A stretch of DNA of 64,000 nt from Coleofasciculus sp. B1-GNL1-01 (GTDB lineage Bacteria > Cyanobacteriota > Cyanobacteriia > Cyanobacteriales > Coleofasciculaceae). The stretch is taken from assembly GCA_040220235.1 (NCBI GenBank), contig JAVJTO010000063.1, one strand, 5' to 3'. Below, one piece after another: positions 21,023 through 29,670 of this stretch. A model generated the notes under the pieces. The model saw only the letters and a list, made by a program, of their open reading frames with translations, made no database searches and was not told the origin of the DNA. The translations under genes and the position numbers were made by a program. Numbering within the stretch: the stretch's first letter is position 1; the number at the start of each line of letters is the position of its first letter.

Positions 21023-21767
21023 CCCTTGGGCAATACGAAAAATCAGGGATTGGAATAAGAGCGGATTTTGTCCTTCGGTTATCAGTGACCGAAAATATGG
21101 GATTCAAGCCCCGTCCTTTTAGGACGGCTTTTATTCCCTTTGTCTGTTAGAATTTTGATGTAGAAGTTTTCCACGTCAATGATTGTACTAGAGTTCAAAG
21201 CTCAAGGGAAAACAACTCAATACACGGCAATAGACGAAGCAATCAGAACCGCTCAGTTTGTTCGGAATAAATGCGTCCGCTATTGGATGGATAACCCAGG
21301 GGTAGGGCAAAAAGATTTGTATCGTTATAACACCGCGTTAAGGGCTGAGTTTCCTTATGTTAAGGCTTTGAACTCTCATGCTTGTCAGGCATCTGTTGAA
21401 AGAGCTTATTCTGCCATTGCCAGATTCTACGATAATTGTCGGAAAGGACTTCTTGGCCAGAAAGGTTATCCACGCTTTAAGAAGAATACTCGCTCAGTGG
21501 AGTATAAGACTTCGGGGTGGAAACTCTCGGAAACTCGCAAGCGGATTACTTTCACTGATCAAAAAGGAATAGGCTCGCTCAAACTCAAAGGGACGTGGGA
21601 CTTAAACTACTATCAACTTGAACAAATCAAACGGGTTAGATTGGTGCGTCGTGCAGACGGCTACTACGTTCAGTTTTTAGCAAAAACGCCGGAAGCCCCA
21701 CGCCGTCCTGAAAGGCGGCGCTGGGATGGATAGGCGGTTAATCACTGGGGTTCGATACCGAGAGTGA

Positions 21768-22205
21768 TTAACGAGTAGGTGCATTCTGTCCGCGAATATA
21801 TCGTTCCAGAACCTCGATATTCGCTCCACCCACAGACTCAATAGCATAGGAGTCATTCCAGAATTCCCTTTTGCTATCGTCATCCTTTTTCCAAAAGAAC
21901 TGAGCCAGATGCTCAGAAAACTCCTTGTTAACCTTACCACTAGTAACAGTCTTCAAGTTATTGATGAACTTAGAAAGTTGCATCTGTGGGTAATAAGAAA
22001 ACAGCAGATGAACATGGTCATCCTCTCCGTTGAATTCAATCACTGTTACTCCCCATTTTTCGCACAGCCCCCTAATGCTGGTTTCGAGCTGTTCTAGTAG
22101 TGCAGCATTAATGCACTTCGCTCGATACTTGGTCGTCAGCACTAAATGTGCTTTAAGGTCTGAGACGGAGCGAGAACTAGACCTGTAGCGTTTCTTTTTA
22201 ACCAT
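21768..22205 (-). CDS. tnpA: IS200/IS605 Y1 (HUH) transposase
   Basis: HLVLTTKYR, EDDHVHLL (HUH), FWNDSY, catalytic YIRGQ. Confidence 0.95.
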   Translation of the reverse strand: MVKKKRYRSSSRSVSDLKAHLVLTTKYRAKCINAALLEQLETSIRGLCEKWGVTVIEFNGEDDHVHLLFSYYPQMQLSKFINNLKTVTSGKVNKEFSEHLAQFFWKKDDDSKREFWNDSYAIESVGGANIEVLERYIRGQNAPTR

Positions 22206-22225
22206 AGTGCGGTACAATATAAGAC

Positions 22226-23617
22226 ATGAAAACAGCCTACCAATACCGCCTGTATCCCAGTGACAAGCAAAAGATCTCCCTCAACAATGGATTGAGGGTT
22301 TGTCGCTATTGGTACAACCGGATGCTGGGTGAACGACTGGATTGGTGGGAGCAGAACCGATGTCCGGTTAATTCCTGTCCCCTGATTTGTCACTTGCCCG
22401 AACTCAAGGAACGTCCCAACTACTACAACCAGAAGAATCAACTACCTAGCATCAAGGAAGACTTGGTACTGGTGAGATGGTCAGGAGAACTCTTAGACTT
22501 CAGTGATATCTATTCGACTATCTTGCAGGATGTCTGCAAGCGAGTTGACAAGGCATTCGAGCGATACATCAAGGGGGACAAGGATGGGAAACGCTCTGGC
22601 AAGCCTCGGTTTAAGAGCGAGTCTCGTTATCGCACGATGGTCTTTGATGGGGCAAAGAATGAGTGGTTGAAGTTCTGCACGGTCAACGGTCGTTGGCTCT
22701 ACCTAAGGCTTCCCAAGATTGGGTTAGTCAAGGTGAGAACTCATCGCCCGATACCAGATGGTTTTAACCTCAAGCAGGTCAGTGTTACGAACAAATCTGA
22801 CGGCTGGTATGTGTCATTCATTTTAGACGACCCATCCGTTCCAGACTTTACCCCAGATAAGACAATCCCGACTTGGGACAATTCGATGGGACTAGATGCT
22901 GTCCTGAACGAAGATGTGTATATTGCCACCTCTGAAGGTGAAAGCATCCCCTCTCTTAAGCCCCTGAGGAAAAACCTCGACAAGCTAGGGAAGTTGCAGA
23001 CCAAGCGAAACGCTAAAAATAAAGGGTCTCGCCGTCGCCGTAAACTAGCCAAAAGAGAAGCAAGGTTTCATCAGCGCATTGCTAGGAGTCGTCAAGATTT
23101 CCAGTACAAGAGTGCGTACAAATTGGTGCGAACCGGGAAGAAGGTGTTTTTCTGTGAGGACTTAAACCTCAAAGGATTGACCAAGCGTAATGCACCTAAA
23201 CAAGATGATGACGGGAAATACCTTCCCAACGGGCAATCCGCAAAGTCAGGACTGAACAAATCCTGGCTGGATGCTGCATTCGGACAATTCTTTTCCACGC
23301 TAAGTTACATAGCTGCAAAAGCTGGGGCTGTGGTCGTTGAAAAGAATCCTGCTTATACTTCCCAAATCCTCTGCTATCGAGACGAGTTTGTATTCACAGA
23401 TTGTTCGATTCGAGAGTATTGGGATGAACAGTTGCAAATCTGGGTTGATAGAGACATTAATGCTGCTATCAACCTAAAACGTGTAGGGCTGGACGTGTTC
23501 CCTACCCTAAAACGCCGTAAAGGGAATCCTGTAGTGGTTTCTTCCACTACTAATAGTACCTTGAAGGAAGTTTTGACCGCCTTATTCAAGGCATCAGAAG
23601 CCCACGCTGTCCCGTAA
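22226..23617 (+). CDS. tnpB: TnpB RNA-guided endonuclease (degenerate zinc finger)
   Basis: AYQYRLYP, GKPRFK, MGLDA, FCEDLNL, PAYTSQ, DRDINAA. Confidence 0.93.
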   Translation: MKTAYQYRLYPSDKQKISLNNGLRVCRYWYNRMLGERLDWWEQNRCPVNSCPLICHLPELKERPNYYNQKNQLPSIKEDLVLVRWSGELLDFSDIYSTILQDVCKRVDKAFERYIKGDKDGKRSGKPRFKSESRYRTMVFDGAKNEWLKFCTVNGRWLYLRLPKIGLVKVRTHRPIPDGFNLKQVSVTNKSDGWYVSFILDDPSVPDFTPDKTIPTWDNSMGLDAVLNEDVYIATSEGESIPSLKPLRKNLDKLGKLQTKRNAKNKGSRRRRKLAKREARFHQRIARSRQDFQYKSAYKLVRTGKKVFFCEDLNLKGLTKRNAPKQDDDGKYLPNGQSAKSGLNKSWLDAAFGQFFSTLSYIAAKAGAVVVEKNPAYTSQILCYRDEFVFTDCSIREYWDEQLQIWVDRDINAAINLKRVGLDVFPTLKRRKGNPVVVSSTTNSTLKEVLTALFKASEAHAVP

Positions 23618-24396
23618 GGGCAGCGCTGGGTACGTCACTCAAAGCAGAAGTTAAAGTAGACAGTCAACCAACAGGTAAAGCGATTGGGTTGGATGTAGGA
23701 CTCAAAGAGTTCTACACAGACTCCAATGGGCATACTGAACCTAACCCTAGATTTTATCGAACGAGCGAGAAACGTTTAAAGTTTAGACAAAAGCGCGTCT
23801 CTCGTAAAAAGAAAGGCTCATCCAACCGCAAGAAAGCCATTAATCGATTAGGACGAGTGCACCTTAAAATAAGTAGGCAACGTGAAGAACACGCGAAGAG
23901 AGTAGCGCGTTGCGTTATCCAATCTAACGATTTGGTCGCCTATGAAGACTTGAGGAGCGGGAATTTAGCTAAAAATCATTGTCTTGCCAAGTCGATCTGC
24001 CAAGTCGATCAATGATGCGGGTTGGTATCAATTTAGGAAATGGCTAGAGTATTTTGGGACTAAGTTGGGTAAAGTAACGGTTGCTGTTAATCCAGCGTAT
24101 ACCTCCCAGAAATGCTCTAGCTGTGGTGCAGTTGTCAAAAAATCTCTATCAACTCGGACTCATGTTTGTCAATGTGGGTTCACCACAGATAGGGATTGGA
24201 ATGCTGCCATTAACATCCTAAAATTAGCCTTGAGTACGCTAGGGCATAGCGGAACTTGGGTCATAGACTCGAACGCTTCTGGAGATTCGACCTCTACCTT
24301 AGCTGGAGCAATCCTGCTTGGGCAAGTTGGGTCTATGAATGAAGAATCCTCGACCCTTTAGGGCGAGGAGTGTCAATTAATGCCTTCTGTTGTCCA

Positions 24397-25205: not shown

Positions 25206-25467
25206 CTGTAGGAGAGGGTTTAGGGACTCTGTAGGGGTGGGTTTAGGGACTCTGTAGGGGCGGGTTTAGGGACTCTGTAGGGGCGGGTTTAGGGACTCTG
25301 TAGGGGCGGGTTTAGGGACTAAAGTCAGCTATTCGACCCATAAGTAAAAAACAAAACCCGCCCTTTCTCACCCATAAGTAAAAAACAAAACCCGCCCTTT
25401 CTCATCCATAAGTGAAAAACAAAACCCGCCCTTTCTCACCCATAAGTGAAAAACAAAACCCGCCCTT
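25206..25467. repeat. 5 x 23-bp (CTGTAGGGGCGGGTTTAGGGACT) followed by ~4 x 34-bp (..ACAAAACCCGCCC..) tandem arrays
   Basis: Directly counted; the two units carry complementary GGGCGGGTTT / AAACCCGCCC arms. Confidence 0.92.
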
Positions 25468-26508: not shown

Positions 26509-29500
26509 ATGGCTGATCCAAACTGGGAAACCCTGAAGACGTTTCTCCACCAATTGTTGTTGATTACTTTACCCAGCAACGAGGATGTATCTGTGGTGCA
26601 TACGTTCCTGGCAGAGAACTCTGATAAGCTGAATGAGAGGTTTGCCCTGGTGCTACAGGAATGGGCGATCGCAAGGTTGGCTGAATTGGATGATCGTCAC
26701 AAGCCGGATCTGGCAAGACGCCTGCGGGGAATTAGTCAGTTTATTAACCAGTTTCCCGGCGGCGATCGCACGGATCATCTGGAAATTGTCCGCATTAGCT
26801 ACGAAATTGCGGCTCAGGTTTTCACTCAGGCTGATGATCCCCAGGATTGGGCGGAAACTAACTATTATTTGGGGTTAATTTATTTAGAGCGGAATAAAGG
26901 CGATCGCATCAGGAACCTACGCCAAGCCATTCAACGATTGGAAGCCGCTTTAACCGTCTACACCGCCGCGTTTCCCGATCAACGAGCCGAGATAGAAACG
27001 CACTTGGAATGCGCTTACCTAGAAATTCGACAGCATGAGTCAATTGAACCCAGCCATCCTATCCTATCTTCAACCCCTGCATTATCTCCGTCAGCAACTC
27101 CCCAAGTCAGTGAAGCCGACATCGCCGCGATTCAACCCCCTGCATTTCGTGCGATCGCTCAAAGCCTACTCGATGCAGAAAAATTAACCGCTGTAGAAAT
27201 TACTCCCGCTTCCCAGGAAAAGGCGGAACCTTTACCCCAGAATTTACCCAAGGTTCTCCACTACGCCTTAAATACCATTGGAATTAACTCTCTATGGTCT
27301 CATCAGTACGCCTCATTACAGGCGTTGCGTCAAGGGGGGGATATTTTACTCTCAACCCCAACAGCCAGTGGCAAAACTCTGGCGTTTCTTCTCCCAATTC
27401 TGGAAACCTGTCTGATCAATCCCCACAGCACCGCCCTATTTATTTTTCCCTTAAAGGCGTTGGCGGTGGATCAGTTGCGGCAAATTCACGACATTATTGA
27501 CCTAATCCCGAAGTTTCAGCGGATTAATGTAGTGATGCTGACGGGAGATGTTCCCATGGCTGAACGGATTAAATTATTAGAACAATCGCCGCAAATTGTT
27601 TGTATCACCCCTGACTTACTCCACCATCAACTTTTTAAACTTTTTAAACCCCAATGGCAGTCGTGGCAATGGTTTCTGAGAAATCTGTGTTATTTGGTGA
27701 TTGATGAAGCCCATACTTATCGCGGTAGTTTTGGCGCTCACTTTGCCAATCTAATGCGACGGTTGCGATTAGCGATCGATCAAAGTGGTGGAGATTCCAC
27801 TCAATTACAACATATCTTTGCCACGGCAACAATTGGCAATCCAGGGGAATTAGCCGAAACCTTTAGTGGAAGACGGGGAAATTTATCGCTAATCGAGAAC
27901 AGTGGTGCAGCAACGGCGGCGCGGACAACCCTCTGTTTAGCCCCGTCTAAGTATGCCAATATTGACTCGTGTGCGATTGTCTTGTCTTGGTTAGAGCAAG
28001 GATTAAAGGGGATTGTTTTTTGTAATAGTCGCATTTCCCTCAAATCTCTCTTAAACCAGATCCAAGAACATCTAGAACAACGGGGACAAGGTTACCTTAA
28101 ATCCCAAGTGAGAATATTTTATGGTTCCCTTAAATCTCATCATCGTCGCCAAATTATTCAGCAACTGAGTGCGGGAGAAATTAGCATTATTCTGGCAACC
28201 TCAGCCTTAGAAGCAGGGATTGATATTCCAGAACTGGATTGTTGCTTACTGCGCGGTTATCCCGGTTCACTGATGCAGTTACGTCAACGTCAAGGAAGGG
28301 CGGGACGAAAAAGCCCTGGTTTAGTGATTTTTCTGCCCATTGCCCAAAACGCCTTGGATTATTTTTATGGGAATAACCCGGACTTATTGTTAAGAGGTGA
28401 AGTTGAAAGTGCGGTATGTAATCCCGATTATCAAGTCTTCCTCAAACAGCATTTACTTTGTGGGGCTTGTGAGAGTGGTATTCCGTTGGAGAAATTCTAT
28501 CAGTATTTTGGTCAGTCCGCCGCAGACATTGCTATTCAGTTGATGAATCAAAACCAGTTATCCCTCTCTCGCCACCAGCACTTGTGGACGAAACCTTATC
28601 CCCATAAAGACGTGCAAATGCGAGGAACGAACCATTTTACGGTGACATTAGTGGATCAACAGACGGGAGAAGAATTTGAGGAATTGGATGAAAAGCACGC
28701 CCAGCGAGAAGTCTTTCCTGAGGCAATTTATCAGCATCAGTCACCTTGGGGCGATCGGGTTTGGTATTCTTGTCAAAGTCTGGATTTGGAAAATCAACAG
28801 GCAATTTTAAAACCTCTAGCTGAAGATCCCCAGCAGTTAACTCGTGCGGAACAAGAAACTGAGATTGAACTCAAATCTTACTTAGCTGAACCGAAGATTT
28901 TGCCAACAAGAATTCCGGAAGGACGAATACGCCTAATTCTGGGTTGGGGAGAAATTACCGATTACGTTAATGGATATACACTCTACAGTCTAGAATACGA
29001 CAAAACCTGCCAAAATTTTCAATGTCGGCGGTATCATACACCTGTCAAAGAAGCTCAATGTCCAGACTGTCGGCGCAGGACACGGTTTGCTGAAATCCAG
29101 AAACGGATTAAAACGGTGAATTTTGAGCAGCCTTATTTAACTCGACTGGAAGCACCTGTACTGCAAATTGAAGTTAATCAACCGATTCAGGACTATTTGA
29201 CTCAACAGGTTAAAGGAATCAAACAAAAATTGATTCAGCAGTATGGGAAGAATATTCCGAGTGACTATACCTGTCTGTGGTCTTGTCCACCCGAACGGAT
29301 TGCGTTACATTCTATTACCCACCAAATTAATTTGGCTGTACCCTTATTAATTTTGAGTGAGACTCAAGAGGTAAATAGTCTAATCGTGAACAAACCCAAC
29401 CGTCAACACACCTTACCCACAATTGGCTATTGGTTTGATACAACACCAGGGGGAAATGGGGTATCTGAGGCTATTTTTCATCGCTTCTGGGACTTTGCGT

Positions 29501-29670
29501 TCAAAGCTAAGGTGTTAGCAGAAGGGTGTGACTGTGATCAGGGTTGTCCTCGCTGTTTGATGCAGCACAGTTGTCCTGAAAGTAATGCGGCGTTGAACAA
29601 GAGTTTGGGACTTTTATTATTGGAAATTATCAGTCAGATGGAGACGTTACCTCTAACGTCTGAAGGTTAG
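26509..29670 (+). CDS. DEAH-box helicase with DUF1998 (MrfA/Hrq1/SftH-like) and N-terminal TPR-like region
   Basis: TPTASGKT, VIDEAH, ATATIGNP, TSALEAGIDI, QRQGRAGR, FDTTPGGNG, CDCDQGCPRC. Confidence 0.92.
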   Translation: MADPNWETLKTFLHQLLLITLPSNEDVSVVHTFLAENSDKLNERFALVLQEWAIARLAELDDRHKPDLARRLRGISQFINQFPGGDRTDHLEIVRISYEIAAQVFTQADDPQDWAETNYYLGLIYLERNKGDRIRNLRQAIQRLEAALTVYTAAFPDQRAEIETHLECAYLEIRQHESIEPSHPILSSTPALSPSATPQVSEADIAAIQPPAFRAIAQSLLDAEKLTAVEITPASQEKAEPLPQNLPKVLHYALNTIGINSLWSHQYASLQALRQGGDILLSTPTASGKTLAFLLPILETCLINPHSTALFIFPLKALAVDQLRQIHDIIDLIPKFQRINVVMLTGDVPMAERIKLLEQSPQIVCITPDLLHHQLFKLFKPQWQSWQWFLRNLCYLVIDEAHTYRGSFGAHFANLMRRLRLAIDQSGGDSTQLQHIFATATIGNPGELAETFSGRRGNLSLIENSGAATAARTTLCLAPSKYANIDSCAIVLSWLEQGLKGIVFCNSRISLKSLLNQIQEHLEQRGQGYLKSQVRIFYGSLKSHHRRQIIQQLSAGEISIILATSALEAGIDIPELDCCLLRGYPGSLMQLRQRQGRAGRKSPGLVIFLPIAQNALDYFYGNNPDLLLRGEVESAVCNPDYQVFLKQHLLCGACESGIPLEKFYQYFGQSAADIAIQLMNQNQLSLSRHQHLWTKPYPHKDVQMRGTNHFTVTLVDQQTGEEFEELDEKHAQREVFPEAIYQHQSPWGDRVWYSCQSLDLENQQAILKPLAEDPQQLTRAEQETEIELKSYLAEPKILPTRIPEGRIRLILGWGEITDYVNGYTLYSLEYDKTCQNFQCRRYHTPVKEAQCPDCRRRTRFAEIQKRIKTVNFEQPYLTRLEAPVLQIEVNQPIQDYLTQQVKGIKQKLIQQYGKNIPSDYTCLWSCPPERIALHSITHQINLAVPLLILSETQEVNSLIVNKPNRQHTLPTIGYWFDTTPGGNGVSEAIFHRFWDFAFKAKVLAEGCDCDQGCPRCLMQHSCPESNAALNKSLGLLLLEIISQMETLPLTSEG

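Follow-up and report, generated by a model that had tools for sequence, protein, structure and literature searches.

When one insertion sequence (IS) lands inside another, does its RNA-guided nuclease become a weapon against the family of the interrupted element, or does it serve to keep the insert at its own site? A locus of Coleofasciculus sp. B1-GNL1-01 raises this question. The window (the whole stretch of DNA analyzed here, 64,000 nucleotides of the draft assembly G000) contains a tnpA/tnpB element that interrupts a second tnpB gene (Table 1). An initial annotation had described the insert as intact and free of target duplication, and had proposed that its guide, taken from the flanking DNA, lets one IS family drive into, or suppress, another. 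The description is borne out by the junctions, the profile matches and the copies found elsewhere. The proposed function fared differently, as set out below.

Two nested IS200/IS605 elements

The outer sequence reads ...CAGTTTTTAG up to 21680, where the insert begins with CAAAAACGCCGG...; on the other side ...GGGTACGTCAC (to 23638) is followed by TCAAAGCAGAAGTTAAAGTA, and the outer gene resumes at 23639 with TCAAAGCAGAAG (its right side starts TCAAAG...), target duplication being absent. The flanking motif had been given as TTTAG. All 11 distinct left junctions of the inner-element family follow TTAG, and the longer form holds for only 8 of them (TTTAG 8, ATTAG 2, GTTAG 1), so that the target motif is TTAG with T preferred before it rather than a strict TTTAG. 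At the right end, the copies share a hairpin plus TCAC and diverge after it. The ends were set by copies at other sites, independently of the nested locus. With a Y1 HUH TnpA, an adjoining tnpB, subterminal hairpins, no terminal inverted repeats and a duplication-free insertion on the 3' side of a constant 4-5-nt motif, the inner element belongs to the IS605 group of the IS200/IS605 family. The divergent order of tnpA and tnpB is typical of this group. A 99.9% identical copy lies at a different site in another genome (G007), and near-identical copies, each at other sites, were found in the sequencing runs X1, X5, X9 and X15, which argues that the inner element has been mobile recently.

Table 1. 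Features of the nested locus, in window coordinates
Feature	Position	Strand	Remarks
TGAC target motif of outer element	21086..21089	+	Empty site in L048, ...CAGTGAC/AATCCGATTG
Outer element, tnpB-only (IS1341-type) IS200/IS605	21090..24376	+	1,329 bp without insert; ends CGAAAATATGGG... / ...GTGTCAA
Outer tnpB, 5' part	21179..21680	+	TnpB N-terminal; NF040570, E 2e-17
TTAG	21677..21680	+	TnpA target of inner element; predicted TAM of inner TnpB
Inner IS605-type element	21681..23638	+	1,958 bp; tnpA and tnpB
Left-end subterminal hairpin, inner element	21697..21725	+	z -1.2, weak by itself; kept among copies
Inner tnpA	21768..22217	-	Y1 HUH transposase; HVH and Tyr motifs present
Inner tnpB	22226..23617	+	463 aa; RuvC D224, E311 and D410 present
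Predicted omega-RNA scaffold	23460..23638	+	Overlaps tnpB 3' end; ends with right-end hairpin and TCAC
Predicted guide	23639..23658	+	First 16-20 nt past right end, outer tnpB coding sequence; from sequence and published rule
Outer tnpB, 3' part	23639..24361	+	RuvC part; frameshifted by 13-bp duplication

Could the nesting be a chimera that joins two repeats? The assembly is fragmented, and the nested junctions appear in none of the four runs mentioned above. However, these runs represent other strains, with flanks that differ from the window, and there is no shared overlap at the junctions. In addition, both junctions fall exactly at the TTAG and TCAC cut sites of the family and the locus lies inside a 153-kb contig. 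An assembly artefact was rejected; we consider such a misjoin extremely improbable.

The outer element carries tnpB only, between IS200/IS605-type ends (boundaries after TGAC and after TCAA, as given by the alignment to empty sites, with hairpins of z -2.5 and -3.5), and no tnpA was found in its parts; we take IS1341 to be the name of its group. Other copies of its left end come after TTGAC. Full-length homologues of its TnpB reach 93% identity in the protein database, and the two joined halves agree with the continuous reading of 29 uninterrupted homologues. The frameshift results from a 13-bp tandem duplication (23985-24010), absent from another genome of the genus (G003) and from run X1, and about 38 bp of host DNA past the right end (24376/24377) are missing in comparison with G003 and with the empty-site genomes; both features had escaped the initial annotation. 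The interruption, the frameshift and the deletion at its right flank leave the outer element dead in G000, and it is older than the inner insertion. Because of the frameshift and the loss at the right end, excising the insert would not restore a working outer gene. The same loss alters the predicted guide of the outer element itself.

Further along the window there are two tandem arrays, at 25206-25320 (23-bp unit, 5 copies) and 25336-25467 (34-bp unit, 3.9 copies), which share a GGGGCGGGTTT motif dispersed through the genus. The window also has a 170-aa ORF without Pfam match that precedes a 1,053-aa DEAD/DEAH helicase (26509-29670) with an HRQ1 winged helix, an MrfA Zn-binding domain and an unassigned N-terminal part.

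The inner transposase, nuclease and predicted guide

The inner TnpA matches PF01797 (E 1e-36, 126 bits) and NF033573 (121 bits). The other TnpAs of G000 are 22-30% identical to it, and no other close one of its family was found in that assembly. G000 also contains two derivatives that lack tnpA and are 87% identical to the inner element (C167:17871-19497 and C34:15873-17500), and four isolated matches to its ends (on contigs C53, C133, C144 and C126). The nested copy, its tnpA being the sole cognate one in the assembly, may be a helper for these tnpA-less relatives.

The inner TnpB scores 199 bits against NF040570, above the cut-off of 100, and 146 against the narrower NF038281 model, below its cut-off of 425. 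It aligns with the TnpB of ISDra2 (PDB 8BF8, E 5e-19), with the RuvC catalytic D-E-D kept. The zinc-finger cysteines are missing from it and from all members of its clade (58-100% identity), and since the whole clade shares this absence, it is not decay at the nested locus. This cyanobacterial clade (window 22226-23617 and loci L054-L072) keeps the RuvC triad and has TCAC right ends, with a TTAG target among its closer members. For the inner tnpB, dN/dS comes to 0.05 and 0.08 when compared with the two G000 copies that lack tnpA, and to 0.55 with a closer, frameshifted copy, three of the six comparisons being saturated. Judging from its sequence, the inner TnpB looks intact.

The last 179 nt of the inner element fold better than shuffled sequences (z -3.0). 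An Rfam search of the predicted omega-RNA region found no matching family, only a chance lncRNA match (E 0.92). Part of the right-end region was matched in two RNA runs, at the level of the run and not of reads, and promoter-like sites near tnpB are at chance level (3 found vs 3.0 expected). The latter, the missing cysteines and the precedent of natural TnpBs that are inactive, such as that of IS608 (Meers 2023, PMC10055086, in the portion available), would fit a nesting that is real but inert, in which either the inner TnpB or its RNA fails to act or is not expressed and the guide match has no effect. However, the three RuvC acidic residues are kept, the cysteine loss is a trait of the clade, and purifying selection was detected against two of the three measurable relatives, so we regard an inert passenger as improbable.

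According to the accessible text of Karvelis 2021 (PMC8612924) and Meers 2023 (PMC10055086), the TAM of a TnpB is the target of the companion TnpA and its guide comes from the right flank. By this rule, the guide from 23639 onward, together with TTAG, is predicted to match the uninterrupted outer allele, and to this extent the initial annotation holds. A guide that matches its own empty site is not special, since this is true of every IS605 insertion. The proposed drive requires, in addition, sister copies of the outer element.

Targets of the guide within and beyond the genome

The initial annotation had held that the guide targets every uninterrupted sister copy of the outer element, and had suggested counting these by a genome search for the motif plus guide. 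In the G000 assembly (8.66 Mb, 172 contigs), BLAST found no second outer copy above 76% identity (best 74-76%), and 16-mers of the outer element were found only as 1-9 isolated ones in 10 contigs plus C71, none within 300 bp of a contig end. The best site for TTAG plus the 20-nt guide has 5 mismatches, no exact match to TTAG plus 10 nt was found, and scans with the 5-nt and 4-nt motifs revealed no second target. Thus, G000 presents what the initial annotation itself had named as evidence against its proposal, namely that no other outer copies exist. Among the longer tnpB loci of G000, 33 of 33 are singletons at 95% identity (7 short fragments were left out). With all of them single and the assembly in 172 contigs, multicopy elements may be under-assembled. 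As singletons are the norm for tnpB loci here, suppression should not be read from the lack of sister copies.

The target is not conserved in the outer family either. In the best G000 relative (75% identical), the homologous site lacks TTAG and has 7 mismatches in 20. For the relatives as a whole we recovered 29 homologous sites from 33 loci (4 gave no anchor or a duplicate): TTAG is present in 1 of the 29, all have at least 5 mismatches in 20, and none falls within 3 mismatches, i.e., none is targetable. At the protein level, the eight residues of the target are shared by 0 of 118 anchored homologues (from the best 120 of 3,600 found); the target is thus part of a linker that varies within the outer family. 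A guide against such a linker could reach at most near-identical copies of one element, not a family. The idea of a family-wide suppression was rejected for this lack of conservation, and that of a drive of one IS family against another, as first proposed, is not supported.

Searches beyond G000 gave a similar picture. Across nine genomes of the genus, 17 other sites differ from the 18-nt guide by 2 mismatches or fewer, and none of these follows TTAG. The exact 23-nt guide was found in no GTDB genome and no viral contig and once, unrelated, in metagenomes, in scans that may omit the closest records; this single match (L044) was discarded since it has no similarity to the window. The best outer relatives were 74% identical among plasmids and 93% in the protein database, with different target residues in the latter. 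The guides of the two sister inner copies in G000 have no target within 2 mismatches, and no second nested locus was detected in 41 genomes searched for the inner element and the left part of the outer one, nor in 52 searched for its right part.

Nor does the inner family seek out other IS. None of the 23 other right flanks, tested by means of 60 ORF stretches of 70 aa or more, matches a transposase family of IS or a TnpB family; a PD-(D/E)XK gene lies close to one of them, and two have no match at all. With 0 of 23 copies in an IS there is no family preference for such targets, and targeted nesting was rejected on this count. As tnpB-like loci hold 0.45% of the 72,983 TTAG sites of G000, occasional nesting is expected by chance.

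Other lineages do carry near-identical outer alleles, and it is in this respect that the claim about sister copies retains some force. The outer element is absent at the orthologous site in seven of the eight other genomes of the genus. In G003 (L013, G003:C27) it is present at this site and 99.8% identical (2 differences in 1,039 aligned bases), while the flanks differ from the window at 239 of 7,020 positions (3.4%; Fisher p 3e-12 against the outer element, a test on one event, in which nothing more than vertical descent at the background rate is rejected). This tract of near-identity stops within 25 and 57 bp of the ends of the outer element. This suggests that the outer allele moved recently between lineages, as homing would predict; ordinary recombination is also a possible cause. 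The tract is in itself a possible natural footprint of TnpB homing across lineages. In G003, the equivalent of window positions 21515-23748, including the target, has been deleted and replaced by a 184-bp inverted-repeat element. This MITE-like element (about 8686-8869 of L013) has 10-bp terminal inverted repeats (GGGTCTTCCG), with ends that we take to resemble ISL3-type termini, and sits in the middle of the outer tnpB. G000 has five full-length relatives of it, with ca. 79% identity.

The mat metagenome X1 contains outer pieces identical to the window, in which the gene is apparently in frame and free of an insert; its inner element lies elsewhere. One of its contigs (151 nt, 35 letters on the shorter side) joins 21680 to 23639, with the intervening sequence given as "not known." Given this apparently uninterrupted version, targetable outer alleles exist in the wider population, and with the G003 allele as well, the outer element is not a lone relic but one that circulates there.

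A weaker version of the drive hypothesis, restricted to one element, stays open because of these alleles: at the level of populations, the nested copy would cut near-identical outer elements entering this lineage or transposing within it, and would destroy them or convert them through recombination across the 591 and 738 bp of outer sequence that they share, so that the inner IS rides on the outer one or excludes it. Besides the circulating alleles, the intact inner TnpB and the recent mobility of its element speak for it, as does the lack of an uninterrupted outer copy in G000; the loss in G003 of exactly the stretch with the target can be read as an escape, and with plasmids, multicopy and conjugative ones, TnpB drive and "anti-self defence" have been demonstrated (Mears et al. 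2025, 10.1101/2025.02.20.638934, in the text available). However, the 41 and 52 genomes revealed no second nested locus, missing sisters are the rule for tnpB elements in G000, and the target is not conserved. The G003 deletion, for its part, has at its border a MITE-like element whose family is present in G000, and if 273 bp were deleted at random from a 1.3-kb element, the site would be included in an estimated 1 of 5 cases. We therefore consider drive or immunity of this kind unlikely. Mechanistically, one element could act on the other only where other strains supply near-identical outer alleles, and even this we hold to be rather doubtful. We found neither multiple targetable host copies in this draft assembly, nor, in the genomes searched, the same insert at the same position of host copies at different loci, nor a target that is conserved in the host family or preferred by the inner one, all of them features expected of a homing-type drive.

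What the nesting implies

The reading that we prefer, and consider probable, is that an intact IS605 element inserted at a TTAG in an older tnpB-only element, likely by chance, and that its TnpB likely serves ordinary self-retention or allelic homing at its own site, rather than being a weapon against a family. Self-retention is the likely role since the predicted substrate of this TnpB is confined to that one site in its empty form. TnpA would have placed the element, as single-stranded DNA, on the 3' side of TTAG with no duplication, leaving the junctions seen here by a mechanism established for the family. A transcript through the right end would then take the next ca. 16 nt, here outer tnpB sequence, as its guide, following the established rule. 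Where an empty allele arises after TnpA excision, on a sister copy of the chromosome or by arrival from another strain, TnpB would cut TTAG plus guide, and recombination would copy the inner element back into the same locus, as is known from ISDra2 and ISGst. That the donor joint is cleaved and the element then copied back from the sister chromosome is described in the available parts of Karvelis 2021 (PMC8612924) and Meers 2023 (PMC10055086). Since the assembly contains no ectopic target, there would be nothing to spread into. Several cyanobacteria are polyploid, a statement about the group rather than this genus; polyploidy, if present here, would allow the insert to spread through all copies of its own locus. 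As the outer element circulates in the population, homing between alleles, or an immunity to outer copies that arrive, may also occur.

The inner element resembles ISDra2 of Deinococcus radiodurans and ISGst of Geobacillus in having tnpA and tnpB between hairpin ends, duplication-free insertion 3' of a short AT-rich motif, a (here predicted) guide from the right flank, and a RuvC triad that could be aligned with that of ISDra2 TnpB. Unlike them, it has a TTAG motif, a TCAC right end, divergent tnpA and tnpB, and a TnpB from the cyanobacterial clade without zinc-finger cysteines, and its flank happens to be another tnpB. The plasmid drive of Mears 2025 is similar, as far as the available text goes, in that an IS nested in another mobile element has its guide (here predicted) reprogrammed against uninterrupted host copies, but there the host was a multicopy replicon and the drive was measured, whereas the host in the present case is an IS that is dead and single-copy, and the searches revealed no second target. 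Nestings of IS605-type elements inside IS605-type elements have also been described in Haloquadratum walsbyi (5 events, and 18 more by PATEs; Dyall-Smith 2011, PMC3119063, Table 5); unlike the present case, they are archaeal and were published before the guide function of TnpB was known, and in the part of that paper available the consequences for the guide are not considered. IS-in-IS targeting is likewise not addressed in the retrieved text of PMC13565253 and 10.1101/2022.10.12.511977. Our literature search, with incomplete coverage and supplements excluded, found nothing published on a TnpB guide directed against a host IS, and no paper in which TnpB, TTAG and TAM occur together.

The nesting is a natural example of the published rule by which each IS605 insertion reprograms the guide against its landing site, and it adds an assayable cyanobacterial TnpB clade with a predicted TTAG TAM and no zinc-finger cysteines. 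There is a more far-reaching possibility, to which we assign little probability, that the nested copy provides its lineage with an RNA-guided immunity against a second IS in active circulation among mat cyanobacteria, or with a homing route into it; the G003 deletion would then be the scar of an escape, and TnpB-assisted homing would have brought the outer IS to the same site in two lineages. This would be a natural conflict of IS versus IS mediated by TnpB guides, and plausibly an intermediate between the retention of transposons and CRISPR-like defence. If incoming or new outer copies were indeed cut, TnpB gene drive would extend from plasmids to the conflict of IS versus IS, and the locus would offer a natural model for the rise of defence from transposon nucleases.
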